This document shows, one piece after another, positions 10,350 through 59,162 of a stretch of DNA of 64,000 nucleotides (position 1 is its first letter; each line of letters opens with the position of its first letter). Origin of the DNA: Phycisphaerae bacterium. Its GTDB lineage: Bacteria > Planctomycetota > Phycisphaerae > Phycisphaerales > UBA1924. Below the pieces are notes generated by a model. The model worked only from the letters and a program-made list of their open reading frames with translations, had not been told where the DNA came from and ran no database searches. The stretch covers positions 421 to 64,420 of the forward strand of contig JBGPJM010000001.1 in the NCBI GenBank assembly GCA_041485385.1, written 5' to 3'. Made by a program: the position numbers and the translations under genes.

Positions 10350-10363
10350 GACATTCCCCCGAC

Positions 10364-15819: not shown

Positions 15820-17028
15820 CTACGGGCAGGGAGCGAAGAACGCACCGAGGAAGTCGAAGAAATCCTGGGAGTTGATGATCGAGTCGTGGTTGAAGTCGGC
15901 GCTCGGGTTACCGGCAAAGAAGGCGGCGAGGAAGTCGAAGAAGTCGCCTGAGTTCGCGATGCCGTCTTGGTTGAAATCCGCCGCGCAGAAGAGCGGCCGC
16001 GTCCAGAGCAGGGCTTCGGTGTAACCCGTCAGCGAGTTGGTGCCGAAGCCCGCGACATAGAGGTTCGTGCCATCGCTGGAAAGCCCCGATGCTCGACTCT
16101 CCGTGAACCCGGCGGGGAGGAAAACGTGGAGATCGACCCAGGAGTCCGCCGTGCCGCTCCACAGGCTGGCGTGGGCCGCGCCGCCCACAAATGCACTCCC
16201 CGCCTGCTGCCCGCCGCTGATGGCAATGGCGTAGGAACTGGTCAAGCCCGCCGGGCCGAGACTGACCCACGAGTCCGCCGTGCCGCTCCACAGGCTGGCG
16301 ACGGTCACGCTGCCGCCGTCCCAGGCATACCCCACCTGCTGCCCGCCGCTGCCGCCAAAGACTTCGGACCACACCGCGCCCGCCGGGTTGAGATCGACCC
16401 ACGAGTCCGCCGTCCCGCTCCACAGGCTGGCGTGGTAATCGGCAAAGTCGCCCACAGCGGCATACCCCGCCTGCCGCCCGCCGCTGGCGACCCGGGCCAT
16501 GGACTCGTATTCGCCCGCCGGGTGGAGATCGACCCACGAGGCCGCCGTCCCGCTCCACAGGCTGGCGCGGTACTGGTCATCCACAGAGACATACCCCACC
16601 TGCTGCCCGTCGCCGACGCCAAGGGCTTCGGACTCCGGCGATCCCGCCGGGTTGAGATCGACCCACGAGGCCGCCGTGCCGCTCCACAGGCTAGCGCGGA
16701 CCGCGCCGTCCACAATGGCAACCCCCACCTGCTGCCCGCCGCTGGCCGCGGTGGCAAAGGACAACGCCGAGCCGGCCGGGTTGAGATCGACCCACGAGGC
16801 CGCCGTGCCGCTCCACAGGCTGGCGCGGTACACGCCGCCCACGGTGGCACCTCCCGCCTGCTGACCGCCGCTGGCGGCACGGGCATCGCAGTGCGTCGAG
16901 CCCGCCGGGTTAAGTCTGGCCACGGTCCACTGGGCGTGGGCCGTTGAGGCGAGCATGACACTCGCGAGCGCAGGCAGCGCTGCCATGATGGTGTTTCGGA
17001 TGGTATTTCGAATGTATGTCACGTTCAT
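15820..17028 (-). CDS. Secreted HAF-like repeat protein with C-terminal double dockerin-like tag
   Basis: ORF 15820..17064. I prefer the ATG at 17028 (MNVTYIRNTIRNTIMAALPALASVMLASTAHA), preceded by GGAGGAG. About eight repeats of ...GGQQ(V/A)G...ASLWSGTA(A/D)SWVDLNPAG.... C-terminus is [55 protein letters not shown]. Confidence 0.85.
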   Translation of the reverse strand: MNVTYIRNTIRNTIMAALPALASVMLASTAHAQWTVARLNPAGSTHCDARAASGGQQAGGATVGGVYRASLWSGTAASWVDLNPAGSALSFATAASGGQQVGVAIVDGAVRASLWSGTAASWVDLNPAGSPESEALGVGDGQQVGYVSVDDQYRASLWSGTAASWVDLHPAGEYESMARVASGGRQAGYAAVGDFADYHASLWSGTADSWVDLNPAGAVWSEVFGGSGGQQVGYAWDGGSVTVASLWSGTADSWVSLGPAGLTSSYAIAISGGQQAGSAFVGGAAHASLWSGTADSWVDLHVFLPAGFTESRASGLSSDGTNLYVAGFGTNSLTGYTEALLWTRPLFCAADFNQDGIANSGDFFDFLAAFFAGNPSADFNHDSIINSQDFFDFLGAFFAPCP

Positions 17029-17460: not shown

Positions 17461-20400
17461 TCACGGCATCGGCAACTTGGACCGCCACTGGGCGGCCTTG
17501 AGGGCGTGTCCCTGCTCCGGGTCGGACCGGTCCCAAGCTTCGTAGAACGCGGCGAGGCGCTCGATGGAGGCGTTGAGCTGCGGGCTGGCGGGCGGGGCAT
17601 CGCCGGCGTCGGCTGGGGGCGCCAACCGTTCGCACGCTTCGACGAGCAGGGCCTCGGCCTGGGGCATCTCGGCTCGGGCCGTGCGATACTCGGCGAGGTT
17701 GAACAGATCGCGGGTGATATCCGGATGGCTGCGCGGCTGGAGGCGTCGGCGCATGCCCAGAGCTTCCTCGAATTGGGCCAGGGCCAGCTCGTCCTTCCCG
17801 AGAGCCCGGAGACAACCCGCCACACCCGCGAGGCTCTGGGCCGTGTCCACCTGATCTCCGGGCGCGATTCGCCGGCGCATCGCCAGGGCCTGCTCGTATC
17901 GGCCCAGGGCCTCCGCCGGTTCTCTCATCGATTCGTAGCAGGCGCCGATGTGTTCGAGAGTCGATGCGGCGTCGGCGCTGTCGGGGCTGGCGAGGTGCTG
18001 GAAGATCTCGAGGGCATGCTCGTGTGCCTCGATCGCCTTCGACGGGTTCTTAAGTTTCGTCAGACAGTCGGCCATCCGGTTGGTCATCTGGGCCGTGTGG
18101 ATGCGGTAGGGCTCGCCGAGACGTTGGGCGATGTCGCGTGCCTCGGTGAATCGGTCGAGCGCGTCCTGGAAGTGTTCGAGGGACAGCAGGCACAAGGCGG
18201 TGTTCATCAGGTCGTAGGAGATGTTGATGTGGTCGCCGTCGTAGTAGCCGCGCCAGAACGTCAGCGCCTGGTCGTACTTGTCGAACCCATCCTGGAAGCT
18301 GCCCATGCCCTGGAAGCAGTAGCCCATGCAGTCGAATGTCGCGGCTTCCCGCTCGCTCCTGCCGGGCCAGGCGCGGTGGCACAACTCCAGGGCGGTCCGG
18401 TACTTGGCCATCGCGTCGTCCCGCCGGTTGAACGCCTCGAGGGTTCTGCCAAGTTCGAAGAGGCTTGTGATCGCGGCGCGAGGGTCCTGCTCGACCAGGC
18501 GTGCCCGCATCGCCGCGCCGGCCTCGAGGCTCTCGATCGCCTTGTCTTCGCGACCCAGGCGCCTGTAGACGGCGCCGAGCTCTGTCAAGCCTTCTGCAAC
18601 CCATGGATCATCTCCGGGGCGTGCGCTCTTGCGCCTGGCCAACTCCTGCTGCATCATGAGCAGCGCCTCGTCGGGGCTGCCCAGTGCGATGAGGCTTCTG
18701 GACTCCTGGTGCAGCATCAACGTGGTGTTCAGGCTGGGACCGGGACAGAAGAGCTGTTGCATGCAGCGGGCGGCGTGCGACGTTGCCAGGGACTCGTCGT
18801 ATTGACGATTGCTCCACAGGCAGATCGCTTGATTGGAGAGCGCTGCCGCGAGGTTCAGGTTTCCACCCGGGAACAGACGATGGAACATGGAAACGGCCAC
18901 TTCGTACTCGACCAGCGCGTCGGCTGTTCGCGTGAGATCTTTGAGGCAGTCGGCCACGACCCTATGGCCCTGCGCGACAGCCGCGTGATCCCCGGGGTGG
19001 AGGCGTTGCGCCATCGCGAGAGCCTCGCTGTAGAGCGGAAGCGCCTGGTTGGGCGGGACGCACCAGCCGATGGCTTCCAGACTCTTCACGATGCGATCAT
19101 CGTCGCCTGTGCATTCGCGCCGTCGGATCTCGAGCGAGCGCCGCAGCAGCGGGAGCGCCTCACCGGACATCTCGCGGGAACGGAGCACGAGGCCCAGCTC
19201 GTACATCACGCCGGCGGCCTCCAAACTTCCGGGACCATCGCCGGCGCTGGCGAGCTCCAGAGCCCGGCGGAGCATCCGGTCGGACCTCTCCCACTCGGCG
19301 ATGCCCCGGTACACGCTGCCGATCATGAACCGGAGCCGCCATTCTTCCTCCGGCGCCGCGGAGAGTTCCCCGGCATCAATGCGGGCGGCGGCGGCGTCCA
19401 TCATCTCCTGCAACATCCTGGTGTCGCGCCCGAGAGCCACCGACGGGCCGACGCCGGCAAACACCTCCCCCATGAACTGCCCGACCCCTTCGGCGCGGTG
19501 ACGCGCGGCCGCCTCCTTGACGAGCGCCGCCTCTTTGGCGTCGTTCTTGTATTTCGCCTGCACGAGGCCGTACGTCGCCAGCCCCAGCCCCAGCACCAGC
19601 GCGCCAAGCACCGCGGAACCCGCGAGGAAGACGCCGAGGTTCCGCCGCACCAGCTTTCCCAGCCGGTACACGGTGCTGGGAGGGCCGGCCAGCACCGGCT
19701 CGTCGCACAGGTACCGCTGCACCTCCATCGCCAGACCGTTGGCCGTCTCGTAGCGGCGGGTGCGGTCCTTCTCCAGGCACTTCATCACGATCCAGTCCAG
19801 CTCGCCGCGCACCAGCCTGCCGATCCTTGAAGGCTCCGTCCGGCGATTCGTCGCCACCCGCGCGAGCGCATCTCCCAACGTGCTCAGGCGCGTGCTGGGA
19901 GTAGGTGGCTCCTCCTCCCGGATCATCCGCTGCATCTCCGCCCACGCCGCGGAACGGAGCCGCTTGGGGTCCAGCGGCGTCGTCCCGGTGAGCAGTTCGT
20001 ACAACAGCACTCCCAGGCTGAAGATGTCGCTGCGCGTGTCGATGTCCACGCCGGTCATCTCCGCCTGCTCCGGGCTCATGTACTCGGGCGTGCCGATGAG
20101 CTGGCGGTGCTCGGTGAAGAGCGTCTTCTCCGTGAGGCGTGCGGAGGTCGCCTTGGCGATCCCGAAGTCGATCACCTTCGGGATCGGCTTGCCGTCGGAC
20201 ACGGTTACCAGCACGTTGCCCGGCTTGATGTCCCGGTGGATGACCCCTTTCTGGTGCGAGTGCTGCACGGCGTTGCACACCTGCGCGAACAGCTCCAGGC
20301 GCTCGCGGGTGCTGAGGCTGTTCGTATCGCAATACTCCGTCACCGGCTCTCCGCGCACCAGCTCCATCACGAAATAGGGGCGCCCCGTAGGCGTCGCTCC

Positions 20401-20877
20401 GGCATCAAGAACCCTGGCAATATTCGGGTGGTCCATGAGGGCCAGGGCCTGGCGCTCCTGCTCGAAGCGGGCGACGACCTGCCCGGTGTCCATCCCCAGC
20501 TTGATGATCTTCAGCGCCACCCGCCGCCGTACGGGCTGCTCCTGTTCCGCCAGGAAAACGGCTCCGAAGCCGCCCTCCCCGATGAGCTGGAGCAGCTTGT
20601 AGGGTCCGATCCGGGCGCCGGGCCCCTCTCTGAGCGGCCCCATGGCGGTCGACGTCGACAGCTCGGATCCTTCACCAGCCGGCAGCGCGTTCCCCGCCGT
20701 CGGCGAGGCCATGAAGTCTCCCGCCCTTGCCCCGGCCGCCAGCAACCCCAGCACGCGCTGCAGGAGTTCGGCGTCGTTCGCGCACTCGGCGCGCACAAAC
20801 GCCTCTCTCGCCCCCGGCGGTTGCTCCATCGCCTCGCCGAAGATCCGCTCCATTTGCCGCAGCTTGGTCCCGGCCAT
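17461..20877 (-). CDS. Ser/Thr protein kinase with transmembrane helix and long TPR domain
   Basis: 1138 aa. Kinase motifs [34 protein letters not shown] and SPEQ. One TM helix ([23 protein letters not shown]), then about 700 aa of TPR-like repeats. Confidence 0.92.
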
Positions 20878-20887
20878 GGCCGCCCTT

Positions 20888-21502
20888 CTAGGACTCCCCC
20901 GCGTCGCGCTCGGCGCCCTCCTGGTCTCCCAACTCCTGGAACAGCAACGCCCGCGCGAACGCCCACCGCCGCTTCACCGTCGCCGGCGACAACCCAAGCG
21001 CCGCCGCGGTCGTTTCCACGTCCAGGCCGGCATAGAACCGCAGCCGTACCACCCATGCCAGCTCGGTGTCCTGCATCTCCAGGCGACGCACCGCCTCGTC
21101 GAGGCTCAGGATCGCGTCGGAATCCAGCTCCGCGGCCAGGTCCACCACACACAACGGCACGCGACGCGCCGGGGATCCATGACTGTCGCCGCCCCGTTTC
21201 ATCCGCCCGCGCGCTCGCGCATGCTCGATCAGGATTCGGCGCATCGCCTCGGCGGCGGCCGTGTAAAAATGAGCCCTGCCCGACCACTGGGGCTCGCCGC
21301 CGCCGACCAGGCGCAGATAGGCCTCGTGGACCAGCGCGGTGGCCTGCAGCGTGTGGCCCGCACGCTCCTGCGCCATCCGCTCCTGGGCAATGGCACGGAG
21401 CTGACCATACACGAGCGGGAGAAGGTCGGCTGCGGCCTGGACATCACCCCCCGCGACCCGTTGCAGCAGCCGCGTTGCCGGTGTAGTTGAGTTCCCGGGC
21501 AT
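20888..21502 (-). CDS. ECF-type RNA polymerase sigma factor (PF07638 / ECF43-like)
   Basis: 204 aa. [41 protein letters not shown]...[20 protein letters not shown] is the hallmark N-terminal region of this family. Lies 10 nt upstream of the kinase gene. Confidence 0.9.
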
Positions 21503-44324: not shown

Positions 44325-44441
44325 GCGGCAGGGGCACGGCTCAGCTCGCATGAACTCAGGTATTTCGGTGCGGCTCCGGGCGTTCTAGCCGAGATGCGAG
44401 GACGGTGGCGCGGCGCTTGACGGTCGCGCCGGGGAGTCTGG

Positions 44442-45179
44442 ATGGAACTGCTGCAGCAGGCATTCGAGTGGGTGGTGCACATCGACAGGCACCTGGACGC
44501 GCTGGTCAGCGAGTACGGACCGCTGATGTACCTGCTGTTGTTCGCGGTGATTTTCGCGGAGACGGGGCTGGTGGTGACGCCGTTCCTGCCGGGGGACTCG
44601 CTCCTGTTCGCGGTGGGGGCGATCGCGGCCCGGCCGGGGGCATCGCTGAACGTGTGGGTGCTTCTGGCGGTGCTGATGCTCGCCGGGGGGCTGGGGAACA
44701 CGGTGAACTACTGGGCGGGGCGGCTGCTGGGGCCGCGTGTGGCCAGAACGGGGACGCTCCCGCTCGTGAACCCGCGGAACCTGGAGCGGACGCACGCGTT
44801 CTTCGAGAAGCACGGGGCGAAGGCGGTGCTGCTGGCGCGGTTCGTGCCGATCGTGCGGACGCTGGCGCCCTTTGTGGCGGGTGCGGGGATGATGGGGCAT
44901 GCGCGGTACCAGGTGTACAACTGGGTAGGGACCGTGGCGTGGGTGGGTGTCTGCGTGTTGGGGGGGTATTTCTTCGGGAACTTCCGAGCGGTGCGGGAGA
45001 ACTTCGCGCTGGTGGCGCTGGGGATCGTCGTCGTCTCGCTCCTCCCCATGGCGATTGAGGTAGTCCGGCACAGGGCCGCATCGCGAAGGAACCAACCCAG
45101 TGCGTGCCCCGGCTGCGAATACAACCTTCGCGGCGTGACGGCGCCGAACTGCCCCGAGTGCGGCCGTCCGATCGGCTGA
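44442..45179 (+). CDS. DedA/VTT-family membrane protein with C-terminal CxxC...CxxC tail
   Basis: [23 protein letters not shown]...[21 protein letters not shown] is the DedA signature. The tail is [24 protein letters not shown]. Confidence 0.85.
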
Positions 45180-45287
45180 GCCGTCCTGCGACAACCCGAG
45201 GGAACCGATCCACGAGAATCCCGGGGGGGTCATCTCGCGGCTATCCTGTCCCCCTTGGGCCTTGAGTGAGCAGGGACATCGGAGACC

Positions 45288-46148
45288 GTGATGAGCCGAG
45301 CAGAAATCTCGTTGCCGCAAGCGCCGGCAGGTTTGCCCACGCCGCGGGCGCTGGGGCAGACGTCGCGGGAAGACCTGTGGTGGGTGCAGCCGCTGGCGGT
45401 GTTTCTGGGGCTGGGGGCGTTCATCGTGTACTCGACGTGGGCGGCGCTGCAAGGGGCGCACTATTTCGTGGCCGGAACCGAATACCTTTCGCCGATGTAC
45501 TCGCCGACGCTGTGGGATGCGCCGGGGCAGCACTCGGGCCACGCGTGGCTCGGGCCGTGGCCGAGCTGGCTCTCCTGGGTGCCGGTGGCTGTGGCGTCGC
45601 CGGCATTCCTGATTCTCTGGGCGCCGGCCGGGTTCCGGTTCACTTGCTACTACTACCGGGGCGCGTACTACAAGGCGTTCTGGGCGGACCCGCTGACGTG
45701 CGCGGTGGGCGAGCCGGGATTCCGCGGGAAGAGGTTCCGCGGCGAGCGCTCGCTGCCGCTGATCCTGCAGAACGTGCACAGGTATTTCTACTACCTGGCG
45801 GCGCTGTTCATCGTGCTGCTGAGCATCGACGCCGTGAAGTCGTACTGGTTCACCGACATCGCGGGCAAGGGCCATTTCGGGATCGGCGTCGGGTCGCTGG
45901 TGCTGACGATCAACCCGATCCTGCTGGGGGCGTACACCTTCGGTTGCCACTCGCTGCGGCACCTGATCGGCGGAAAGAAAGACTGCCTCTCGAGCCTGGG
46001 GCCGAAGAAGAGGGCCTACGACTGCGTGAGCTGCCTCAACCGGAACCACATGAAATGGGCGTGGTTCAGCCTGTTCTGGGTCGGGTTCACGGACTTCTAC
46101 GTTCGGATGGTCTCGATGGGGTACATCACCGACTACCGGCTGCTGTAG
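45288..46148 (+). CDS. Succinate dehydrogenase/fumarate reductase membrane-anchor (cytochrome b-like) subunit, tentative
   Basis: 286-aa polytopic membrane protein with conserved His residues, immediately upstream of the flavoprotein and Fe-S subunit genes. The call rests mainly on operon context. Confidence 0.6.
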   Translation: MMSRAEISLPQAPAGLPTPRALGQTSREDLWWVQPLAVFLGLGAFIVYSTWAALQGAHYFVAGTEYLSPMYSPTLWDAPGQHSGHAWLGPWPSWLSWVPVAVASPAFLILWAPAGFRFTCYYYRGAYYKAFWADPLTCAVGEPGFRGKRFRGERSLPLILQNVHRYFYYLAALFIVLLSIDAVKSYWFTDIAGKGHFGIGVGSLVLTINPILLGAYTFGCHSLRHLIGGKKDCLSSLGPKKRAYDCVSCLNRNHMKWAWFSLFWVGFTDFYVRMVSMGYITDYRLL

Positions 46149-46169
46149 TTGCGAGGAGCCCGGACTCTC

Positions 46170-47984
46170 ATGGCGCAGTACGAAACGCACGAGCACGACG
46201 TCCTGGTGATCGGCGCCGGCGGCGCGGGCCTCCGCGCGGCGATCGAGGCCTCGACGAAGGGGTGCCGCACCGCGGTGGTGTGCAAGTCGCTCCTGGGCAA
46301 GGCGCACACGGTGATGGCCGAGGGCGGGGTGGCCGCGGCGCTGGCCAACGTGGACGACCGCGACTCGTGGAAAGTGCACTTCGCGGACACGATGCGCGGC
46401 GGGCAGTATCTGAACAACTGGAGGATGGCCGAACTGCACGCCAAGGAGGCGCCGGACCGCGTGAAGGAGCTGGAGGCGTGGGGCGCGGTGTTCGACCGGA
46501 CGAAGGACGGGCGGATCCTGCAGCGGAACTTCGGCGGCCACCGCTACCCGCGCCTGGCGCACGTAGGGGACCGCACGGGCCTGGAGATGATCCGCACGCT
46601 GCAGGACCACGGGGTGCACCAGGGGATCGACGTCTACATGGAGATGACGGTCTTCAGCCTTTTGAAGGAAGGCGGGAGGGTGGTGGGCGCGTTCGGCTAC
46701 GACCGGGAGCGCGGGCGGTTCCGAGTGTGGCGCGCCAAGGCGGTGGTGCTGGCGACGGGGGGGATCGGGCGGGCGTTCCGGATCACGAGCAACTCGTGGG
46801 AGTACACCGGCGACGGCCAGGCGCTGGCGTACCAAGCCGGGGCGGACCTGATGGACATGGAGTTCGTCCAGTTCCACCCGACCGGGATGGTGTGGCCGCC
46901 GAGCGTGCGGGGGATCCTGGTGACCGAAGGCGTGCGCGGCGAGGGCGGGCGTTTGCTCAACATCAAGGGCGAGCGGTTCATGTTCAACGACATCCCGGAG
47001 AACTACCGCAACCAGACCGCCAAGGACGCCGAGGAGGGGTGGCGCTACGTGACGGGGGACAAGTCGGCAAACCGCCCGCCGGAGCTTCTGACGCGCGACC
47101 ACGTGTCGAGGTGCATCAACCGCGAAGTGAAGGCTGGGCGCGGTTCGCCGCACGGGGGCGTGTTCCTCGATATCGCGTGGATCAGGGAGAAGTTGCCCAA
47201 CGCCGAGGAGCACATCAAGAAAAAGCTCCCCAGCATGTACCACCAGTTCCACACGCTGGCGGGCATCGACATCACGAAGGAGCCGATGGAGGTGGGCCCG
47301 ACGACCCACTACGTCATGGGCGGTGTGCGAGTGGACGGGGACACGCAGATGAGCACGGTGCCGGGGCTCTTCGCCGCGGGAGAGGTGGCCGCGGGGCTGC
47401 ACGGCGCCAACCGGCTGGGGGGGAACTCGCTGAGCGACCTCCTGGTGTTCGGCAAGCTGGCCGGTGAGTTCGCGGCGGAGTACGCCAAGAAGAACAGCCT
47501 GGGGACGGTGAACGGGCAGCAGGTGGAGGAGGCGGGCAAGCGGGCGCTGGAGCCGTTCGAGCGCGGGTCCAAGGGGGAGAACCCGTACGCGATCCAGCAC
47601 GACCTGCAGGACATGATGCAGGACCTCGTGGGCATCGTGCGCACGCAGAACGAGATGGAGCGGGCGCTGGAGGGGATCGGGCGGTTGAAAGCGCGGGCGA
47701 GGGGCGTGGGCGTGCCGGGGAACCGCGAGTACAACCCCGGCTGGCACACGGCGATCGACCTGGACAATCTGCTGACCATTTCGGAGGCCGTGACGCGGGC
47801 GGCGCTGGAGCGCCCGGAAAGCCGCGGGGCGCAGTTCCGCGATGACTACCCCAGCAAGAGCGATGAGTGCGCGAAGTTCAACATCGTGCTGCGGAAGAGC
47901 GAGGATGGGTCGATGCGGGTGGTGCGGGAGCCGATCAGGCCGATGCGGGAGGACCTGAAGCAGATCATCGAGGAGAACAAGTAG
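46170..47984 (+). CDS. sdhA: Succinate dehydrogenase/fumarate reductase flavoprotein subunit
   Basis: ATG at M8 of ORF 46149..47984. DVLVIGAGGAGLRAA, HTVMAEGG, VQFHPTG (FAD-histidyl site), GLFAAGE and RLGGNSL motifs. Confidence 0.93.
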   Translation: MAQYETHEHDVLVIGAGGAGLRAAIEASTKGCRTAVVCKSLLGKAHTVMAEGGVAAALANVDDRDSWKVHFADTMRGGQYLNNWRMAELHAKEAPDRVKELEAWGAVFDRTKDGRILQRNFGGHRYPRLAHVGDRTGLEMIRTLQDHGVHQGIDVYMEMTVFSLLKEGGRVVGAFGYDRERGRFRVWRAKAVVLATGGIGRAFRITSNSWEYTGDGQALAYQAGADLMDMEFVQFHPTGMVWPPSVRGILVTEGVRGEGGRLLNIKGERFMFNDIPENYRNQTAKDAEEGWRYVTGDKSANRPPELLTRDHVSRCINREVKAGRGSPHGGVFLDIAWIREKLPNAEEHIKKKLPSMYHQFHTLAGIDITKEPMEVGPTTHYVMGGVRVDGDTQMSTVPGLFAAGEVAAGLHGANRLGGNSLSDLLVFGKLAGEFAAEYAKKNSLGTVNGQQVEEAGKRALEPFERGSKGENPYAIQHDLQDMMQDLVGIVRTQNEMERALEGIGRLKARARGVGVPGNREYNPGWHTAIDLDNLLTISEAVTRAALERPESRGAQFRDDYPSKSDECAKFNIVLRKSEDGSMRVVREPIRPMREDLKQIIEENK

Positions 47985-48037
47985 GGAGGGGCGAAGGACG
48001 GGACGATGCGGCGTGGGCGCGGGCGGAGAAGCATGGC

Positions 48038-48874
48038 ATGACGACGACAACGACCAGATCAAGCCCCCCCTCCCCACCCGCCGCGGCAGGCGCCGCCGGG
48101 GGGGGCTCGTCGGTGGAGAGGAAGGTCTCTCGCCTGTTCCGGGTCTGGCGCGGCGACAAGACCAAGGGGGAGTTCAAGGACTACAAGACCGAGGTGACCG
48201 AGGGGATGGTCGTTCTGGACGCCGTGCACCAGATCCAGGCCGAGAGCGCCCCGGACCTGGCGTGCCGATGGAACTGCAAGGCCGGCAAGTGCGGGAGCTG
48301 CTCGGCGGAGGTCAACGGCAAGCCGCGGCTGATGTGCATGACGCGCCTGCAGGACCTGCCCGAGGACATGCCGGTGACGGTCGAGCCGATGCAGGCGTTC
48401 CCGCTGATCAGGGACCTGGTGACCGACGTGTCCTGGAACTTCGAGGTGAAGAAGAGGATCAAGCCGTTCACGCCCCGGAAGCCGGATGCGCCGGACGGCA
48501 CATGGCGGATGCAGCAGGAGGACGTGGACCGGGTGCAGGAGTTCCGCAAGTGCATCGAGTGCTACCTCTGCCAGGATGTGTGCCATGTGCTGCGTGACCA
48601 CCACAAGCACGGGGAGTTCATCGGGCCGCGGTTCCTGGTGCACGTGGCGGCGCTGGAGATGCACCCGCTGGACACGGCGGACCGGGTGGCGGACCTGAGG
48701 AAGGAACACGGGATCGGGTACTGCAACATCACCAAGTGCTGCACGAAGGTCTGCCCGGAGAACATCACGATCACCGACAACGCGATCATCCCGCTCAAGG
48801 AGCGCGTGGTTGACGAGTTCTTCGACCCCCTGACGAAGCTGTTCCGGATGTTCACGCCGAAAGAGTCGCCGTAA
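48038..48874 (+). CDS. sdhB: Succinate dehydrogenase/fumarate reductase iron-sulfur subunit
   Basis: M58 of ORF 47867..48874. Cysteine clusters CRWNCKAGKCGSC, CIECYLCQDVC and CNITKCCTKVCP. Confidence 0.9.
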   Translation: MTTTTTRSSPPSPPAAAGAAGGGSSVERKVSRLFRVWRGDKTKGEFKDYKTEVTEGMVVLDAVHQIQAESAPDLACRWNCKAGKCGSCSAEVNGKPRLMCMTRLQDLPEDMPVTVEPMQAFPLIRDLVTDVSWNFEVKKRIKPFTPRKPDAPDGTWRMQQEDVDRVQEFRKCIECYLCQDVCHVLRDHHKHGEFIGPRFLVHVAALEMHPLDTADRVADLRKEHGIGYCNITKCCTKVCPENITITDNAIIPLKERVVDEFFDPLTKLFRMFTPKESP

Positions 48875-48886: not shown

Positions 48887-51565
48887 TCATGGTGTAACGC
48901 GGCCCCGCCATTCGGTCGCGGAGGTGGTGTCGCCCCGGGCCTCGAAGTGCTTGACGATGCGCTCGGCGGCCCGCCGGCGGCGGTCGTCCGGGGTCTGCGG
49001 GCTGGCCTTCATGATGGTGTAGCCGTCGATGAGCAGGGGCTGGGCGTCGTCGAAGCGCCCCTGCATCGAGAGGCACGCCCCCAGCAGGTTCATCGACGAG
49101 CCGATGAGCCAGTGACCGGCCGGGAGCTTCTCGCGCCGGATGTCGAGGGACTCGCGGAGGAGCGGCTCGGCCTCGGCGGCGCGGCCGAGCTCGAGCAGGT
49201 CCCACCCGAGGTTGGCCTGGCTGCGGGCGATGTCCGGATGATCCGGCTCCAGCAGCGCGCGGTTCATCTCGAGCGCCTCGCGGAAGAGCGGCTCGGCCTT
49301 CGCGGCGTCGCCGCGCTCCAGGTAAAGACCGGCGAGGCTGTTGGCGGCCTTGGCGACGTCCGGGTGCGGCGTCCCCAGCAGCGTCCGCGTCATCTCCAGC
49401 GACTGAAGCAAGAGCGGCTCGGCCTGGCGGAACTTGCCCTGGGCGACCAGGAGAAGACCGAGGTTGTTGAGCGCGCCGGCAAGGTCGGCGGTGGGCGCCT
49501 GCTTGAGATCGCGGATGATGCGCAGCGACTCGGTGTACAGCATCTGCGCCTCGTCGAGGTTGTCCCGCTCGACGAGGATGAGCGCGAGGTTGTTGATCGC
49601 CGCGGCGACGAATCCATCGGTCGGCGGGCGCGTGCGCCGGCTGAGCTCGACATCCTCCCGCGCCAGCGCCTCGGCCTGGTCGAGTTTGCCCTCGAGCCGG
49701 TAGACGGTAGAGAGACTCTCGAGGGTGGCGGACACGTCGGCCGGGTCCTCTTCGGGAAGGGACCGGCGGAGGATGAGGGCCGCGGTGAGGTGCTTCTCGG
49801 CCTCGGGGTAGCGTCCGAGGGACTGATAGGTACGGCCGATGGTCGTGCGGACGTCGGCCTCGATCTGGGGCTGGTTGCGCAGGGAGCCGGCCTCGACCTT
49901 GGCCGCGGCGGCGTCGAGGGCGTCGCCGATGGTGGTGTCCTTGCCGCGCGTGTTCGCCGGGTCGGCCGCGCCGAGGACCTCCTGCATGAAATCGTTGGCG
50001 GCGCGGGCGCGGGCGGTCTGCAACGTGGCGGCCTGCGTCTGGAGGTCGGCGATGTGGTGCTGGGTCGCCTCGGCCTCGCGCGCCCGGTTGGCCTGGCCCA
50101 GCGCGATGGTGGTGCCGATCAGCCCCAGCACGAGGGCCGCGGTCACCAGCCCCGCGCCCACGAGCAGGGCCCGGTTGCGGCGCGCGAACTTCGTCAGCCG
50201 GTACGAGACACTCGGCGGGCCGGCGAGGACCGGCTCGTGCCGAAGGTGGCGCCGGACATCTTCGGCCAGGTCGAGGGCGGAGGCGTAGCGGCGCGTCCGG
50301 TCCTTCTCCATGGCCTTCATGGTGATCCAGTCCAGGTCGCCGCGCAGCGAGCGCGCGAGCGTGGACGGGCTGGCGCCGCGCTGGCGGGCGATCAGGTCCG
50401 GGGATGCGCCCGGGGCGGGCTGGGGCTGCGCCGGGGGCCCGGGGGGGGCGGGGGACGCGGGGGGCGGAGAGGAGAGGCCGCTGAGGCGGGTGCTGGGGCG
50501 CGGCGGCTCGGAGTCGCGGAGGATGCGCTGGATCTCGGCGAAGCCGGCGAAGCGGAAGGTGCGGGGATCAAAGGGGGGAGAACCGGTGAGCAGCTCATAA
50601 AGGAGCACTCCCAGGGAGTAGACGTCGGAGCGCGTGTCGATGTCCTGGCCGGAGAGACCGGCCTGCTCGGGGGACATGTAGGCGGGGGTGCCGATGATCT
50701 GGCCGTGCTCGGTCAGGCCGGTCTCTTCGAGGGCGCGGCTGCTGACGGCCTTGGCGACGCCGAAGTCGATGACCTTGGGAACGGCTCGCCCCCACGCCCC
50801 CCCCACTCCCGACGCCCCTGATCCGCCGTCGCGCTCGACGGCCTCGATCAGGACGTTCCCCGGCTTGAGGTCGCGATGGATAACGCCCTTCTGGTGCGCG
50901 TGCTGCACGGCCTCGCAGACCTGGATAAACAGCTCGAGGCGCTGGCGGACGCTCAGACGCCGCTGGTCGCAGTACAGGGTGATGGGCGGCCCGTGGACGT
51001 ACTCCATCGCGAAATACGGGCGCCCTCGGGGTGTGGCGCCGGCGTCGAAGACGCGCGCGACCGAGGGGTGCTCCATCACGGCCAGCGCCTGGCGCTCGGC
51101 GCGGAATCGCTCGATGACGTGCCGCGTGTCCATCCCGAGCTTGATGACTTTGAGAGCGACCTTGCGCCGGATGGGCTCGGACTGCTCGGCAAGGTAGACG
51201 GTGCCCATGCCGCCGGCGCCGATGGTGGAGAGGATGCGGTAGGGGCCGATCATCGTGCCGGGAGGGTCGTCGGTGAGGATGTCGACGCTGGAGTCCGCGC
51301 CCCCTCCCTGGCCCCGGCCACCCCCACCTCCCCGATCCGCGCCCCGATCCCCCCCACTCCTATCAACCACCGCCGGGACCTGCATGAACTGCTGGTCGGC
51401 GTCGTGCTCGCGCAGGAGCGACTCGATCTCGCGACGCAGGGCGCTGTCGGGGCCACACAGGGCGTCGAGGCAGGCTGGCCGCTCGGCGGGCGCGAGGGCG
51501 GCCGCCGCGGCGAAGATCCGTTCGGTGCGACCGTGTTCGGGCATGGAGGGAGACTGGGTGGGCAT
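48887..51565 (-). CDS. Ser/Thr protein kinase with TM helix and TPR domain (paralogue 2)
   Basis: Real start is M225 of ORF 48887..52237 (MPTQSPSMPEHGRTERIF...). IGAGGMGTVYLA, VALKVI, HRDLKPGNVLI, DFGVA and SPEQ motifs. TM helix ALLVGAGLVTAALVLGLIGTTIAL, then TPR repeats. The ATG overlaps the sigma stop by 1 nt. Confidence 0.92.
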   Translation of the reverse strand: MPTQSPSMPEHGRTERIFAAAAALAPAERPACLDALCGPDSALRREIESLLREHDADQQFMQVPAVVDRSGGDRGADRGGGGGRGQGGGADSSVDILTDDPPGTMIGPYRILSTIGAGGMGTVYLAEQSEPIRRKVALKVIKLGMDTRHVIERFRAERQALAVMEHPSVARVFDAGATPRGRPYFAMEYVHGPPITLYCDQRRLSVRQRLELFIQVCEAVQHAHQKGVIHRDLKPGNVLIEAVERDGGSGASGVGGAWGRAVPKVIDFGVAKAVSSRALEETGLTEHGQIIGTPAYMSPEQAGLSGQDIDTRSDVYSLGVLLYELLTGSPPFDPRTFRFAGFAEIQRILRDSEPPRPSTRLSGLSSPPPASPAPPGPPAQPQPAPGASPDLIARQRGASPSTLARSLRGDLDWITMKAMEKDRTRRYASALDLAEDVRRHLRHEPVLAGPPSVSYRLTKFARRNRALLVGAGLVTAALVLGLIGTTIALGQANRAREAEATQHHIADLQTQAATLQTARARAANDFMQEVLGAADPANTRGKDTTIGDALDAAAAKVEAGSLRNQPQIEADVRTTIGRTYQSLGRYPEAEKHLTAALILRRSLPEEDPADVSATLESLSTVYRLEGKLDQAEALAREDVELSRRTRPPTDGFVAAAINNLALILVERDNLDEAQMLYTESLRIIRDLKQAPTADLAGALNNLGLLLVAQGKFRQAEPLLLQSLEMTRTLLGTPHPDVAKAANSLAGLYLERGDAAKAEPLFREALEMNRALLEPDHPDIARSQANLGWDLLELGRAAEAEPLLRESLDIRREKLPAGHWLIGSSMNLLGACLSMQGRFDDAQPLLIDGYTIMKASPQTPDDRRRRAAERIVKHFEARGDTTSATEWRGRVTP

Positions 51566-52167
51566 CAGGAATCTTCGGGGTCGCCGTCGCCCTGGAGCTT
51601 GCGGACCTCGCGCCTGAGCCAGGCGCGGGCGTAGGTCCACTCGGTCTTTACAGTAGTAAGGGAGAGTCCCAGCGCGGCGGCGGTCTGTTCGATGCTGAGG
51701 CCGGCGAAGTAGCGGAGGTGGACGATCTCGGCCTTGCGCGGGTCGCGGGCCTCGAGGAGCTTGAGGGCCTCGTCGAGGGAGATGAGGTCCTCGGGGGTCT
51801 GGGTATCGCCGACGGCCTCCACATCCCAATCGACGCGCTGCCGCCCGCCGCCGTGCTTGAGGCGGGCGCGGCGACGGGCGCGCTCGACGAGGATGCGTCG
51901 CATGGCCAGGGCGGCGGCGCCGTAGAAGTGGCCGCGGGAGCGCCACTGGGCGTTGGGATCGGCGACGAGGCGGAGGTAGGCCTCGTGGACGAGCGCGGTG
52001 GGCTGGAGGGTGTGGCCGGAGGATTCGCGCGCGAACTGGTTGCGGGCGAGGCGGCGGAGCTCGGCGTAGACCAAGGGCAGGAGCTGCTCGGGCGCAGTGG
52101 GATCGCCGCCGGCGGCGCTGACCAGCAATCGAGTGACGTCCTGGTGTGCGGTTGAGGAGGTCGGCAT
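51565..52167 (-). CDS. ECF-type sigma factor (PF07638 / ECF43-like), paralogue 2
   Basis: The last 200 aa of ORF 51565..53433 starting [68 protein letters not shown]. The upstream 422 codons are read-through of the repeat element. Confidence 0.9.
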   Translation of the reverse strand: MPTSSTAHQDVTRLLVSAAGGDPTAPEQLLPLVYAELRRLARNQFARESSGHTLQPTALVHEAYLRLVADPNAQWRSRGHFYGAAALAMRRILVERARRRARLKHGGGRQRVDWDVEAVGDTQTPEDLISLDEALKLLEARDPRKAEIVHLRYFAGLSIEQTAAALGLSLTTVKTEWTYARAWLRREVRKLQGDGDPEDS

Positions 52168-52216
52168 GGTGTGCTGGGGGCTGGCGCGACGGGGGCGACG
52201 GGAGACTGATGACCAA

Positions 52217-52248
52217 TGTCCGCTGTCCATTGTCCACTGTCCACTGTC
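52217..52248. repeat. (TGTCCRY)n heptamer array
   Basis: tgtccgc tgtccat tgtccac tgtccac tgtc, 50-80 nt upstream of the sigma start codon. Confidence 0.75.
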
Positions 52249-52256
52249 GGGGCTCG

Positions 52257-53398
52257 GAGGTTTCGTGAGGTTCGGCGAGGTTATTTGAGGTTCGGGGTGG
52301 GTTTTTTGAGGTTCGATGGGGGTTTTTTGAGGTTCGGCGAGGTTTTTTGAGGTTTTTGGGGGTTTTTTGAGGTTCGTTTTGGGGGTGTTTTTGATGTAAG
52401 TTGTTGTGGCGTAGTGAGTTATGTCTGTTAGCGGTTGCTTGGTTCGGGGTGGGACCTGAAATGCATCTCTCGAAGAGAAGTAAGCAGTGAGCAGAGAGCA
52501 GTAAGCAGTGAGCAGAAGAGAAGACGGGCGTGGGGGGACAGGGGACGAGAAGGGTCGAGAGATTTCGAGAAAGGTCGAGAGTTTTTGAGAAAAGCAGAGA
52601 AGGGCGGGGAAGGGTCGAGAAAAGCAGGGCAAGTTTTTCATGTAAGTGCTTGTGTTATCGATAGTTGTGACCTTTGATGGGGTGTTTTTCGCGAAGAGGG
52701 GGGGGGTCGGTTTCTCGGGGTTTTTGGGTGGTTTTTGAGGGTCGGCGCGGCGGCGGCGTCGCTGCAAGTGGCTTTCTGCAAAGCACTTGCGTTGAGGCTC
52801 GGCTGATGGGGTGCGAGTCTGAAATTCGGGTGCTCCTGGGCAGGGTTTCGGACCGGACGTTCGCCCCCCCTCCCGTCGGGCGCAGCGTGCGCGCGACGTC
52901 CCTCTACCTATGGGCCATCGGCCCTGTTTGCGCGCGCAGAATGGGAAATCGGCGGGGGTCGAATCGCGTAAGTGCTTGTGGCGCAAGGAGAAGAAAATTG
53001 TGAGGTTTGCGCTTTTGCGCGCGCCGGGCGCGCCTGTTCTGCGCGCGCAAGCGCGCTCCACCGTTCGGGGGAGTTGGTTGCCGCGGTGGCCGCGGGTGCC
53101 CAGATCGCCGCGGTGCGTGTGACGATGCGCTGCCCGCCCCCCGATCGTTCGCCCACCCCTCGCTCGCGCGTCGGGTTCGTCAGGCGTCCGCGGTGATCGG
53201 GGACCGGATGCGGGGCGGCGGCCGCACTCCTCTCGATCGGCGGGAGACGTATCCCGAATCTCGGCGCCCGAGCGATCGCGGGCGCACCTGACGAGCCACT
53301 CAGGCGGCGTCCCCCGTCCCCGCGTCCCTCCGTCGGCGCACGCTCCCCCCCGCCCGCTGCGCGAGGCGGCTCGTTGGAACGATCCCCGCGAGTTCAGC
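52257..53398 (+). repeat. Copy B of the ~1.15-kb non-coding G+T-skewed element
   Basis: Collinear with 11558-12728: same tandem words, the same GTAAGTGCTTGTG boxes, and the same core at 52926-53052. Confidence 0.85.
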
Positions 53399-53425
53399 GC
53401 AGGAAGCGGTCTCCCCGTCTCCCCG

Positions 53426-53455
53426 TCCCACATCCGACATATGTGGGATGTGGGA
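53426..53455. promoter_or_regulatory. 30-bp near-perfect palindrome
   Basis: tcccacatccgacat|atgtgggatgtggga has 15-nt arms with no spacer and one mismatch (53436/53445). The centre is ACATATGT. Confidence 0.55.
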
Positions 53456-53738
53456 TGCGCTGCTCAACCCTTCCGGCTGATGCACCGCGCGTGGCGTTCA
53501 ACCACGAATGCGGTTGTCCGCGCCGAGTGGCTTAGTTCGACCACTTCGATGGCGGCTGCGTTCAACCAGCGGCGATGTTTTACGCAACTTTCATAGTCGC
53601 CGCTGCGCGTTTCGGGCGAACCGGCTCGCGGCACCGGGTTTGCCTCTGTACTCAGTCTGACTGCTCCGTCGCCGTTTTCGCTTTCGGCCGGGCATATCCG
53701 GAGAGGCCCCGTTCCGGGGCCGGTGTTATCGCTGCGCC

Positions 53739-55613
53739 ATGGCCAAGCACCCCACGCCATTCACGCGTTCGCCGAAGTCGCCCGGGCGTGCGCGACGGTT
53801 GCGTGGCGAGGAGACGTCGGCACCGCGCCTCGGGCCGCTGGGGCGGCTGTCGCATTGGTCGGGCCTGACTCGGCTGATCTGGTCGTACGGACGGCCCCAC
53901 CGGCGGCTGTTCCTCTTCGGGGCCGCGTTCGCCCTGGCGGTGGTCGCCTTCCGGCTGGCGCTGCCGTGGACGTTGAAGGCCGCGCTGAGGCCGTGGCTGA
54001 AATCGGGCCCCGGCAAGGGCGAGCACACGATGCCGGGTGGGACGCTCTGGAGCCACGCCGCGGCGATGGCCGGCGTGTTCCTGGTGCTGCTCCTGGCGCT
54101 GGGGCTGGCGGACCTGCTGGAGCGGCTGTATTTCGCGAAGTTCTCGATCGGGACGGTGCGTGATCTGCGGGCGGCCGCGTTCGGCCGTGCGGTGGCGACG
54201 GGGGAGGTCTCCGGCTCGGTGCGGTCGGGCGACCTCATCGCCCGGCTGATCGGCGACACGACGCGGATCAAGGCGGGGATGAAGGGGTTCCTTGTCCATG
54301 TCGCGACCAATGGCGTGCTGTACCTGGGCACGATCGGGATGCTGCTGTGGATGAGCCCGCTGCTGGGGGCGGTCTTCGGCGCGGCGGGCGTGCTGTTGCT
54401 GGTGGCGACCTACCTGGGGGCGGTGCGGATGTACGACCGCGCGGCGAGGTACAGGTCAAAGGAGGGGAGGCTCGCCAACTCGATCCACCACGCCTGGACC
54501 GACGACGGCGTCGAGGCAACGTTTGCCAGGGTCAACCGGTCCAGCGGCACCCAGGAAGCGAAGCTGACCAAGATCCAGGGGGTGACGACGCTGTGCGCGC
54601 ACGCGATCTTCGGCCTGGCGGTGGTCGGCGCGTTCTGGATCGGCCTGGCGAGTTCGGCCGGCCGGCTGGACCGCGGCGAGATGATCGTCTTCGTCCTCTA
54701 CGCGATCTCACTCCGGGCGCCCGTGGTGCAGCTCGCCCGGCAGGGCACAAGGACGGGGAAGATCCTCGCGTGCGTCGAGAGGCTGGACCACCTCCTGAAG
54801 CGGACGAACGCGCCCGGCGGGGCGTCGCTCCCGGCGTCGCTGAGCGACCGGATCGTCCTGGAAGGCGTGAGGGCCCGTTCCGGCCGGTCGCACGGACGGC
54901 GACGCAAACTCGGACCCATCACCCTCGAGATCCCGGCGGGTCAGCACGTTGCGGTGGTTGGCCCGCCGGGCTCGGGTAAGACGACGCTGCTGCGCCTGGT
55001 CTCCGGGCTGGAGAACGCCCGTGGCGGGAGCGTGCGGTGGGATTCCACTCCGCTGCCGCTGCTGACGCGGATGGCCTGGTCGGCGCGGGCGCTGGGGTAT
55101 CTGCCGGAGCGGCCGAGCTGGCGGCGCGCGCCCTTGCGGGCGTTTCTGGGAGTCAAGGGCGACCTGCCGGAGGCGGCGGTCGAGCTCCTGGAGGGCTCCG
55201 GGGCCGATCGCGTCATCCGCCGGCTGCACGATGGACTGGAGACGAAGATCGGCTCGCAGGACCTGTCGATAGGCGAGTGCCGCGGGCTCTTCCTGCTCCG
55301 CGTGGTGCTCGCCGAGCCGTCGGTCCTCCTGCTGGACGACGCCGCGGGCGCGCTCTCGGAAGAGCATGCGGCGCGCCTGGTGAAGCGGGTTCTGCGGGGC
55401 TGCGCGGGTCGGACGGTGGTCATGACGCTCACGCGCCCGGCGGAGGTCGGGGAGTTCGACCGGGTGATCGAGCTGAAGAAGGGACGGGTCGTGTTCGACG
55501 GTCCGCCGCTGATGTGGCACGAGCGTGGGTCGTCGGACATCCCGCAGGTGGCCGCGGGCGCCGACGCCGGGCGCGAGGACGAGAACGAGGAGAGATCCGC
55601 ATGCAAGCCGTAA
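53739..55613 (+). CDS. ABC exporter, fused permease/ATPase (MsbA-like architecture)
   Basis: 624 aa. N-terminal six-helix-type TMD, Walker A GPPGSGKTTLL, signature-like LSIGE, Walker B VLLLDD. Confidence 0.85.
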   Translation: MAKHPTPFTRSPKSPGRARRLRGEETSAPRLGPLGRLSHWSGLTRLIWSYGRPHRRLFLFGAAFALAVVAFRLALPWTLKAALRPWLKSGPGKGEHTMPGGTLWSHAAAMAGVFLVLLLALGLADLLERLYFAKFSIGTVRDLRAAAFGRAVATGEVSGSVRSGDLIARLIGDTTRIKAGMKGFLVHVATNGVLYLGTIGMLLWMSPLLGAVFGAAGVLLLVATYLGAVRMYDRAARYRSKEGRLANSIHHAWTDDGVEATFARVNRSSGTQEAKLTKIQGVTTLCAHAIFGLAVVGAFWIGLASSAGRLDRGEMIVFVLYAISLRAPVVQLARQGTRTGKILACVERLDHLLKRTNAPGGASLPASLSDRIVLEGVRARSGRSHGRRRKLGPITLEIPAGQHVAVVGPPGSGKTTLLRLVSGLENARGGSVRWDSTPLPLLTRMAWSARALGYLPERPSWRRAPLRAFLGVKGDLPEAAVELLEGSGADRVIRRLHDGLETKIGSQDLSIGECRGLFLLRVVLAEPSVLLLDDAAGALSEEHAARLVKRVLRGCAGRTVVMTLTRPAEVGEFDRVIELKKGRVVFDGPPLMWHERGSSDIPQVAAGADAGREDENEERSACKP

Positions 55614-57590: not shown

Positions 57591-59162
57591 ATGCACGCTC
57601 GAACCTTCGCCGTCGGCCTTTCCCTGGCCCTGCTGGCCTCCACCGGGAGGGCCCAGGTCGTCATCAACGAGGTCTTCTCCAATCCCCCGGGGGTCGGCAA
57701 CGACCCGCGCTACGAGTACCTCGAGCTCTTCGGTGAACCGGGCACGGACCTAACCGGGTTTGTGATCGTGGCCGTCTTCGGCGGGGGCGACTCCAACGCC
57801 AACAACATCCCCGGGCCGTTGCCGTCGTCCTGGAACCCGGGCGATGATCTGCCCGAGATCAACGGGGCGTGGAGCCTGGACGGCCTGGCGCTGGGCTCGA
57901 ACGGGCTGCTGGTGCTGTACAACAACACGCTCAACAACAGCGCGATCCCGGCGCTCCTGCCGCCGGCGACCAGCCGGGCGACTTTCACGGCGACGCACAT
58001 CCAGCTCGCCGGCGTGCCGGCGGCCGGCGACATCCGCAACAACGGGTCGCAGACCTACATGCTGCTCCGCCGACGTCCGTTCCATTCGATCGTGGGCGGG
58101 GTGAGCGTGTACGGCGCGGGGTATGCCTGGGCCAAGGGGACCGACCCGGACGTGGACTTCGACAGCCGGATCGACTTCAACGGCGTCGGCCTTCTGCCCG
58201 GGGGGCTGCCTCCGCCACCGGAGATGCCGGTGAACTCGGAGACGTCGGGCGAGCCACCCACGCCCGGCCCGCGCACCCTGGAGCCCTACCAGATGGTGGA
58301 TGAGATCGCCAACTCGGACGGGCGCGGCAAGGAGTACACGCGCTCGACCGAACAGAAGATCTCCGACACCCACGGGGAGAACCCCGACGCCCTGTGCCGC
58401 ATCAACTTTTTCGGCGCCAACCCGAACCGCGGCTGGCGCTTCGACACGACCGGCACACTGGTACGGACCAGGATGGGGGACGAGGAGTTTATCTACGGCG
58501 AGATCCTGGGCGTCCCGGCCATGGACTTCGACCCGATCATCTCCGGCGGCCCGACCGACCCGGCCGGCCCTCGCTACAACATGTTCGGGCAGCCCGATCC
58601 CAACGGTACGTACCTGTTCGACGACCTCAGCCGCGTGGGATATCACCTGACGCCCGGCAGCATGAACGACGTTGACTCGCGCGGGGTGGGCGGGGCCAAC
58701 ATCGTCGAGTTCCGTTTCGTCCGCGGCGACTTCAACTTCGACGGCGTGGTGAACGCCGACGACGATGCGCTGATCACCGGGCGCGTCGGCGCCACCATGG
58801 ACGACCTTGGCCCTTCCACGGACACCAACGGCACGCCGGACCCATCGGACGACATCACGATCACCAACGCCTGGCGATGGCAGGGGCGGGACCTCGAGGC
58901 GATCATGGCGATGCGCAACATGAACAAGACCGACGGACCGGGGGGGACCAACGCCCCCGACGTCACCGCGGCCGACCTCGCCGCGTTCCACGCGCTCAAC
59001 TGCCCCGCCGACTGGAACCACTCCGGCGCGGTGAACAGCCAGGACTTCTTCGACTTCCTGGGTTCGTTCTTCGCGGGAAACGCCGATTTCAACCATTCGG
59101 GAACGACCAACAGCCAGGACTTCTTCGATTTCCTCACCGCGTTTTTCGCCGGCTGCCCATGA
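57591..59162 (+). CDS. Secreted LTD-like domain protein with C-terminal double dockerin-like tag
   Basis: M20 of ORF 57534..59162 ([22 protein letters not shown]). [26 protein letters not shown] is lamin-tail-domain-like. C-terminus is [53 protein letters not shown]. Confidence 0.85.

Follow-up and report, generated by a model that had tools for sequence, protein, structure and literature searches.

A repeated, modular and non-coding intergenic element in variable gene contexts of a Phycisphaerae bacterium

Bacterial interspersed mosaic elements (BIMEs) of enterobacteria, Rhizobium-specific intergenic mosaic elements (RIMEs) of rhizobia and neisserial intergenic mosaic elements (NIMEs) of Neisseria have units of 40-300 bp, and the BOX elements of Streptococcus pneumoniae span 100-300 bp in the order boxA-boxBn-boxC, with inverted-repeat-like ends. 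The element described here lies in a 64,000-nt stretch of DNA (the window; G+C ~69%) from a Phycisphaerae bacterium (GenBank assembly GCA_041485385.1, contig JBGPJM010000001.1, positions 421 to 64,420 of the forward strand). The copy under study, copy B, occupies positions 52257-53398 of the window, between a minus-strand operon for an extracytoplasmic function (ECF) sigma factor and a Ser/Thr protein kinase and a plus-strand ATP-binding cassette (ABC) transporter/TagF-like operon; a second copy, copy A, lies at 11559-12740. The element is repeated, non-coding and modular, and it occurs in variable gene contexts. We lean towards placing copy B in a lineage-specific family of interspersed, intergenic mosaic repeats that are non-coding, and it looks like an insertion between two divergent promoters that is part of neither operon.

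The element resembles in kind BIMEs, RIMEs and NIMEs, BOX elements and the short tandemly repeated repetitive (STRR) sequences of cyanobacteria, though it is larger and has a strong strand asymmetry. Like BIMEs, RIMEs and NIMEs, the element is multi-copy, strictly intergenic and non-coding, combines a few modules in varied ways, contains palindromic units and has short repeats at module junctions; it differs from them in its length of ~1.1 kb, in the small number of copies found so far (at least five), in its extreme strand asymmetry and in its long tandem 20-mer arrays, and it shares with them neither a short palindrome of the REP or dRS3 type nor any sequence similarity. With BOX elements it shares variable tandem units between conserved end or core modules, an intergenic position and the capacity to form hairpins, but no terminal inverted repeats were found in it, and its size and sequence are unrelated. 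Tandem heptamer arrays scattered between genes, here (GAGCAGT)n, (TGTCCAC)n and (ATGTGGG)n together with octamers (GGGAGACG)n, recall the STRR sequences, which belong to another phylum and have other sequences, whereas the arrays here are parts or junctions of a composite with a unique conserved core. Miniature inverted-repeat transposable elements (MITEs) are likewise non-autonomous, non-coding, multi-copy intergenic insertions; the present element is longer, neither terminal inverted repeats joining its ends nor a target duplication was found, and the window holds no cognate transposase. Finally, the large RNAs OLE, GOLLD and ROOL and the CsrB/RsmZ RNAs are comparable in their size of hundreds of nucleotides to 1 kb, and CsrB also in its many short purine-rich repeats, but this element has no Rfam match, no significant folding signal and no identified promoter or terminator. 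The literature on planctomycete intergenic repeats or promoter consensus yielded nothing usable.

Copies, modules and coding status

Copy B, from 52257 to ~53398-53405, corresponds on the same strand to copy A, from 11559/11579 to ~12735-12740, with 80.6% identity over 1189 aligned columns (blastn, E = 0; copy A aligned over 11579-12735); overall, the identity of the two copies is put at ~81-84%. An nhmmer profile of both copies recovers both with E = 0, the match to copy B spanning 52256-53404. The copies, the modules of copy B and the open reading frame (ORF) that runs through it are as follows.

1240-1309, plus strand: solo heptamer-array module, upstream of another minus-strand gene (repeat family D13, blastn)
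11559-12740, plus strand: copy A of the repeat, oriented as copy B, between convergent 3′ ends (sequence match and flanking genes)
52257-53398, plus strand: copy B of the repeat, full length as common to copy A (blastn, nhmmer, alignment with copy C)
52257-52394, plus strand: module 1, with T5-6 tracts and 4-8% C, built of ~6 units of GAGGTTTTTTGAGGTTCGGC (Tandem Repeats Finder, period 20, 5.9 copies)
52396-52408, plus strand: motif instance 1, GTAAGTTGTTGTG, after the T-run TTTTTGAT (motif scan)
52475-52523, plus strand: heptamer array (GAGCAGT)n (tandem-repeat scan), which in copy C flanks the core on both sides
52546-52600, plus strand: 20-mer array (CGAGAAAGGTCGAGAGATTT)n, 90-98% conserved among copies (tandem-repeat scan, copy alignment)
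52642-52654, plus strand: motif instance 2, GTAAGTGCTTGTG, after the T-run TTTTTCAT, with more T-tracts beyond (motif scan)
52763-52793, plus strand: 11-bp hairpin GCAAGTGgCTTT-CTGC-AAAGCACTTGC, a palindromic form of the GTAAGTGCTTGTG motif, present in copies A, B and C (sequence reading)
52898-53100, plus strand: conserved core of ~200 nt, a long hairpin with 86-98% identity among copies A, B and C (alignment, inverted repeats, folding)
53101-53398, plus strand: GC-rich right-hand module, an imperfect palindrome of ~135 nt, largely self-complementary, in copies A and B only and not in copy C
52168-53433, minus strand: spurious 422-codon N-terminal extension of the sigma factor ORF (codon-position GC, stop counts, no Pfam family)

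The T5-6 tracts of module 1 are spaced 10/20/21 nt apart, that is, helically phased. A variable linker separates the 11-bp hairpin from the core, which is closed by a perfect 14-nt inverted repeat, TTGCGCGCGCAGAA / TTCTGCGCGCGCAA (52928-52941 with 53037-53050), and contains motif instance 3 at 52968-52987. Copy B holds three direct instances and one palindromic version of the GTAAGTGCTTGTG motif, and within the window this motif family is confined to copies A and B. The same two copies account for 21 of the window's 26 runs of five or more T and, of its 55 segments of 100 nt with the strongest excess of G over C, for 37; the left ~550 nt of the element has 4-14% C on the plus strand.

The original prediction noted that the ORF list fuses copy B to the sigma factor as a 622-aa protein and held that the 422 added residues, rich in Arg, Pro, Ser, Thr and Lys, do not look like protein, and it was right on each count. 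The frame runs over 51565-53433 on the minus strand, and these five residues make up 49% of the extension. GC at codon positions 1/2/3 is flat in the extension (0.60/0.64/0.65) and is 0.74/0.50/0.89 in the sigma gene, 0.73/0.51/0.92 in the kinase gene and 0.70/0.53/0.91 in the ABC gene. The minus-strand frames over 52257-53110 are all largely open, with 0, 2 and 5 stops per 284 codons against 5-14 in the plus-strand frames, and the indels that separate copy A from copy B, 1, 2, 4 and 19 nt long, keep no frame. The sigma domain itself begins 8 residues past the ATG at 52167, and the extension's sole relatives in the protein database are ORFs through other copies of the repeat, which are not joined to sigma domains; neither the extension nor the database entries P0095-P0097 and P0099 belong to a Pfam family. 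The 622-aa ORF is open because the plus strand of the element is G+T-rich and its minus strand accordingly T-poor, with few stop codons, and the apparent fusion protein is an artefact of the ORF finder. Read-through from the element into the sigma operon, as it had been proposed, exists only as this open frame, a product of the T-poor minus strand. A small ORF in the core, with AAGGAG followed 9 nt on by GTG/TTG, was considered as a separate candidate and rejected, since most of the substitutions that separate copies A, B and C are non-synonymous and an indel of 1 nt is found immediately upstream.

Copies C, D and E were found through a protein-database search with the spurious translation, not through a DNA search. 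That search matched P0095 and P0096, and a profile search added P0097 and the more distant P0098 and P0099. P0095 leads to copy C, on NCBI contig JBGQFU010000208.1 of assembly GCA_041497095.1 (locus L011), whose identity to copies A and B is 83% over the left half and 88-92% over the core. The right-hand ~300 nt are missing from copy C, which has heptamer arrays on either side of the core and, in element orientation, faces with its right end the 3′ end of a gene pair for a DUF1508 protein and an unknown protein; its contig terminates within the T-tract array, as expected where an assembly is interrupted by a repeat. For copies D and E only the spurious ORF products P0096 and P0097 are known, and P0096 carries an octamer-array translation on the opposite side of the T-tract array. 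The family thus comprises at least five mosaic copies, each of ~0.9-1.2 kb.

The resemblance to BIMEs, RIMEs and NIMEs extends to two of the features by which such elements are recognized. Dispersed, non-coding intergenic copies are found here, with copies A, B and C, read as DNA, all lying between genes and D and E added as ORF products; and modules occur in varying combination and number, as seen in copy C, in the solo module at 1240-1309 and in the array unit numbers, which differ between copies A and B. Pairwise identities among copies A, B and C are alike and indicate a star-like relationship, and in all three conserved blocks of up to 98% identity alternate with linkers that are 25-50% identical. 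Plasmid, phage and viral collections gave no match to the element, and exact-sequence look-ups of the window proteins and of P0096-P0099 returned no records.

A scan with the core 20-mer GTAAGTGCTTGTGGCGCAAG returned 2 genome loci, 4 metagenome loci and 0 viral loci, not including the window's own copies; none of these loci carries the element, and their number is close to the chance expectation for a 20-mer over roughly 10^12 positions. At one of them (L002 5606-5656, Planctomycetota metagenome-assembled genome DATKYA010000452.1; identical in L003 and L006) the match continues over ~30 nt and is accompanied, at a distance of 100 nt, by a degenerate second copy, CGTAAGATGTTGTGCCGCAAT, in intergenic DNA upstream of a sugar transferase gene; further exact matches stand at L001 7332-7351, L004 7038-7057 and in L005. 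Judged by these matches, the motif may be a conserved site in the phylum. As a separate observation, the database "proteins" P0100, P0101, P0103 and P0104, from seemingly unrelated and partly low-GC organisms, consist of 10-residue repeats such as EPxRTSxNL, the expected translation of (GAGGTTC...)-type arrays with a 10-nt period, and arrays of this type may occur well beyond this lineage. Short G-rich tandem arrays are also common in the contig's intergenic DNA independently of the large element (10755-10841, 1856-1885, 53409-53427, 53441-53457 and 12168-12199), with the units (GGGAGACG)11, (GGGGGACG), (GTCTCCCC), (ATGTGGG) and (GGAGGCGT).

Origin of the repeat and its possible functions

Each copy is a chain of phased T-tract 20-mer arrays, (GAGCAGT)n, a second 20-mer array, three direct GTAAGTGCTTGTG motifs and a palindromic one, the hairpin core and sometimes the GC-rich palindromic module, with short arrays at the module junctions and with modules and array unit counts varying from copy to copy. 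Spread and reshuffling would presumably proceed through recombination or slippage at the arrays, or through an unknown trans factor, rather than by classical cut-and-paste transposition. No terminal inverted repeats link the ends of 52257-53398 or of 11559-12740, where only internal inverted repeats were detected, and alignment of the flanks of copies A and B gave no common direct repeat that could be a target-site duplication, although the variable left array blurs that end and a short duplication could be hidden there. Insertion at the copy B locus would have set two divergent transcription units ~1.1 kb apart, with the putative signals of the ABC/TagF operon, a sigma-54-type promoter and an upstream palindrome, in the unique flank on one side and those of the sigma/kinase operon in the 90-nt (GTGGACA)n stretch on the other.

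Several observations weigh against this account. The core and some arrays are 90-98% identical where the linkers are 25-50% identical, which suggests that parts of the element may be under constraint and not purely neutral, and a selfish-repeat model does not account for the strand asymmetry, which is extreme and consistent (~550 nt with 4-14% C). No signature of mobility, either terminal inverted repeats or a target-site duplication, was found. The account rests on three copies read as DNA, of which copy C may belong to another genome than the window. Lastly, the plus-strand folds given by RNAalifold, with 98% of cells paired, mostly by way of G-U changes, would suit a function as RNA.

Among the alternatives the one that survives best, though it is itself unlikely, is that the element is a plus-strand non-coding RNA gene or gene cluster. 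Its core and right-hand module would fold as long hairpins, its G/U/A-rich, C-poor left half with many repeats of GAGG, GAGAAGGG and GAGCAGU would offer an RNA-binding protein multiple binding sites, in the manner of a sponge, and the T-tract and GTAAGTGCTTGTG units would be internal promoters. Such a gene would account for a core that is 86-98% conserved against ~80% elsewhere, and the placement of the copies, independent of the orientation of their neighbours, resembles that of a stand-alone gene. Covariation gives a similar impression at first sight. For the core of copies A, B and C, RNAalifold yields a plus-strand structure of 73 pairs, in which 98.2% of cells are paired and 12 one-sided changes compatible with G-U pairing and 3 double changes occur, whereas in the mirrored minus-strand structure many pairs are broken; in the right-hand module 7 of 7 one-sided changes keep plus-strand pairing and there is one compensatory GC-to-AU change. 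The strand comparison is, however, biased both by the way in which it is made and by the G+T-rich composition of the plus strand, which in itself favours G-U pairs. When Watson-Crick-only folds are taken for each copy, 28 substitutions are compatible with the plus-strand and 20 with the minus-strand structure, and 58 pairs fit neither strand, so that no real asymmetry is left; with three sequences, 41 of 500 shuffles reach the values observed with RNAalifold. Z-scores of the minimum free energy (MFE) are not significant on either strand (plus -0.97 and -1.34; minus +0.63 and -0.92). Across the whole window Rfam 15 gives no match to a known structured RNA at gathering thresholds, at E <= 10 the locus returns only chance-level matches to eukaryotic snoRNAs and miRNAs, and a scan for tRNA and tmRNA genes found none. 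Scans of the locus also gave 0 sigma-70 promoter-like sites and 0 intrinsic terminator-like sites. The evidence at the level of RNA is only suggestive.

Distinctly improbable is a second possibility, that the element is a portable Rho-dependent terminator or insulator of minus-strand transcription, in which GC-rich hairpins would be pause sites ahead of ~550 nt of C-rich, G-poor and unstructured Rho utilization (rut) sequence. The composition fits: minus-strand RNA over 52257-52850 has a C/G ratio of 3-8, and the clustering of strongly skewed 100-nt segments in these two copies, A and B, is in keeping with it, as is the lack of intrinsic terminators in the region. The position fits in part. 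A rut site is expected as at least 80 nt of such RNA downstream of a gene, and copies A and C each have a minus-strand gene that ends immediately to their right and would read into them, but copy B has no such gene upstream on the minus strand and would either terminate transcription into the sigma operon or serve no purpose. Moreover, 1.1 kb far exceeds what a rut site needs, and the conserved core, the repeated motifs and the phasing of the T-tracts are left unexplained.

The two possibilities can be joined in the tentative proposal, to which we give a low probability, that the element is a portable functional cassette, either a ~1-kb plus-strand RNA that titrates an RNA-binding protein or a directional Rho-loading insulator. 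In the first form the RNA would combine a conserved domain of two hairpins with a tail of repeats free of C; in the second, expression of the sigma/kinase operon at copy B would need antitermination through a 1.2-kb G-poor leader. Because conservation is uneven along the element and its strand bias is extreme, a function at the level of RNA or of termination keeps a small but appreciable share of the probability beside the preferred reading as an interspersed mosaic repeat.

The two operons beside copy B

The genes and signals around copy B are these.

48887-51568, minus strand: gene for a Ser/Thr protein kinase that has TPR repeats; it overlaps the stop codon of the sigma gene (Pkinase, E = 4e-40; matches to TPR families)
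51565-52167, minus strand: ECF sigma factor gene, 200 aa, ATG at 52167 (Pfam PF07638, E = 2.6e-58, residues 9-189)
52213-52248, plus strand: (CCACTGT/TGTCCAC) array of 5.1 units in the flank outside the element (tandem-repeat scan); not present at copy A
53426-53455, no strand assigned: 30-bp palindrome (15+15 nt) in the other flank (inverted-repeat search)
53630-53643, plus strand: sigma-54-type -24/-12 match GGCACcgggtTTGC (GGCAC-N5-TTGC), outside the element and 96 nt upstream of the ABC start codon (motif scan)
53739-55613, plus strand: ABC transporter gene, first of the ABC/TagF-like operon (domain search and relatives)

The geometry of the locus agrees with what had been described. Copy B ends 89-90 nt from the sigma start codon at 52167, predicted as 90 nt, and the gap holds the expected (TGTCCAC) array; the palindrome lies on the other side of the element; and the plus-strand operon, placed about 340 nt away, starts at 53739, 341 nt from the element end, the ABC gene being followed by a TagF-like Glyphos_transf gene. 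Copy A stands between the 3′ ends of convergent genes, as proposed, with a plus-strand gene ending at 11496 and a minus-strand dockerin-type gene ending at 13052. The further claim that the element fills the whole divergent control region holds in that it lies between the two operons, but it covers 1142 of the 1571 intergenic bases and leaves unique flanks of ~89 and ~340 nt. An ECF sigma factor paired with a Ser/Thr kinase is a known arrangement in several ECF groups (PMC7826278).

A functional tie of the element to the sigma/kinase operon, which the original prediction implied, finds no support in the comparison with related operons. A paralogous operon for a PF07638 ECF sigma factor and a Ser/Thr kinase with TPR repeats, at 17461-21502 on the minus strand of the same window and 73-75% identical to it in parts at the nucleotide level (repeat families D9 and D10), is preceded by ~340 nt of ordinary upstream sequence in which the element does not occur. 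The synteny comparison that had been suggested gives a similar result for the other operon. The gene order ABC, nucleotidyl-/glycerophosphotransferase, unknown gene is retained in distant relatives (the ABC protein has its nearest homologue at 57% identity), the genes upstream vary among these relatives (RNase III, or a two-component system with a sigma-54 activator), and their ABC upstream regions of 300-480 nt contain neither the element nor an ECF sigma gene. Apart from the sigma-54-type motif, nothing in the ABC upstream flank is alignable with these relatives, which have TGGCAC-N5-GTGC or TGGCGA-N5-GTGC at the corresponding place; the window holds 3 matches of this type where 0.77 are expected. 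A candidate activator binding site is the palindrome at 53426-53455, ~175 nt away on the upstream side of the match. A similar GG-N10-GC motif also occurs upstream of the orthologous gene in L007, L008, L009 and L010, and in L008 a divergent sigma-54 activator and histidine kinase are present as well.

On the other side, the (TGTCCAC)5 array fills most of the 90 nt before the sigma start and reads (GTGGACA)n on the minus strand. Slippage in this likely promoter or leader could make expression vary. The array was also considered as a cluster of DnaA boxes or an origin and rejected, with 3 TTGTCCACA-like sites found against 6 expected, that is, no enrichment. We infer that both promoters probably lie in the flanks and that the element would have no role for the neighbouring operons, to neither of which any observation ties it specifically; the promoter of the sigma operon could nonetheless be inside the element.

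Seen against these comparisons, it is very doubtful that the element is a regulatory DNA module in which DNA curved by the phased T-tracts, with repeated protein-binding sites, serves the two divergent operons. The T5-6 tracts every 10/20/21 nt, the GTAAGTGCTTGTG motif in three direct copies and one palindrome, and the position of copy B between two 5′ ends would suit such a module. A promoter module would, however, be expected at the paralogous and orthologous operons and in a fixed orientation to a downstream gene, and neither was found: the paralogous ECF/kinase operon and the relatives' orthologous ABC operons do without the element, and the flanking genes of the copies show no consistent orientation. 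The sigma-54-type match and the palindrome that may serve the ABC operon are in the unique flank, and no sigma-70-type match was found in the element. Since copies A and C abut 3′ ends of genes and copy B lies between 5′ ends, a simple promoter role cannot fit all copies, as had been argued from copies A and B. As for the 622-aa ORF as a real ECF sigma factor bearing a long disordered N-terminal extension, the frame open from 53433 to 51565 and the comparable database "proteins" P0095, P0096 and P0097 would be its support, but flat codon-position GC, openness of all three minus-strand frames, frame-shifting indels between copies, homologues with neither sigma domain nor Pfam family and a sigma domain that starts 8 residues after the ATG leave it virtually no chance, and composition and the comparison of copies have already refuted it.

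Other features of the window and significance

Elsewhere in the window, the 1230-aa ORF at 44385-48077 on the minus strand has no Pfam match and is probably spurious, as the plus strand there carries genes with high GC at third codon positions (GC3), including a succinate dehydrogenase/fumarate reductase flavoprotein (46149-47984, plus strand) and its iron-sulfur subunit (47867-48874). The 393-aa ORF at 10315-11496 on the plus strand is probably overlong; GC3 suggests a gene of ~200 aa from ~10870, with a weak cytochrome b562 match, and a seemingly separate short gene at ~10384-10700 on the minus strand would place the (GGGAGACG)11 array in a divergent gap. Several genes for large secreted proteins end in (Q/S)DFFDFL...FFAG units of ~75 nt that resemble GC-type dockerins (13062-13212, 15830-15988 and 59006-59152, and L011 15-171), and at 16129-16911 a coding repeat of 129 nt occurs six times.

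In sum, these results remove a false 622-aa "sigma factor with N-terminal extension" from the annotation and flag at least three database "proteins", P0095, P0096 and P0097, as translations of a DNA repeat. They describe a previously undescribed family of dispersed repeats in a poorly sampled planctomycete-like lineage, with unusual traits: in a genome of 69% GC, one strand is nearly devoid of C over ~550 nt, the T-tracts are in helical phase and the hairpin core is conserved. As it stands this is a modest descriptive finding. If the element were transcribed or loaded Rho, it would offer a handle on regulation in a phylum whose promoters, terminators and small RNAs are largely unknown, and a portable functional cassette in either form would represent a new class of regulatory element in Planctomycetota.

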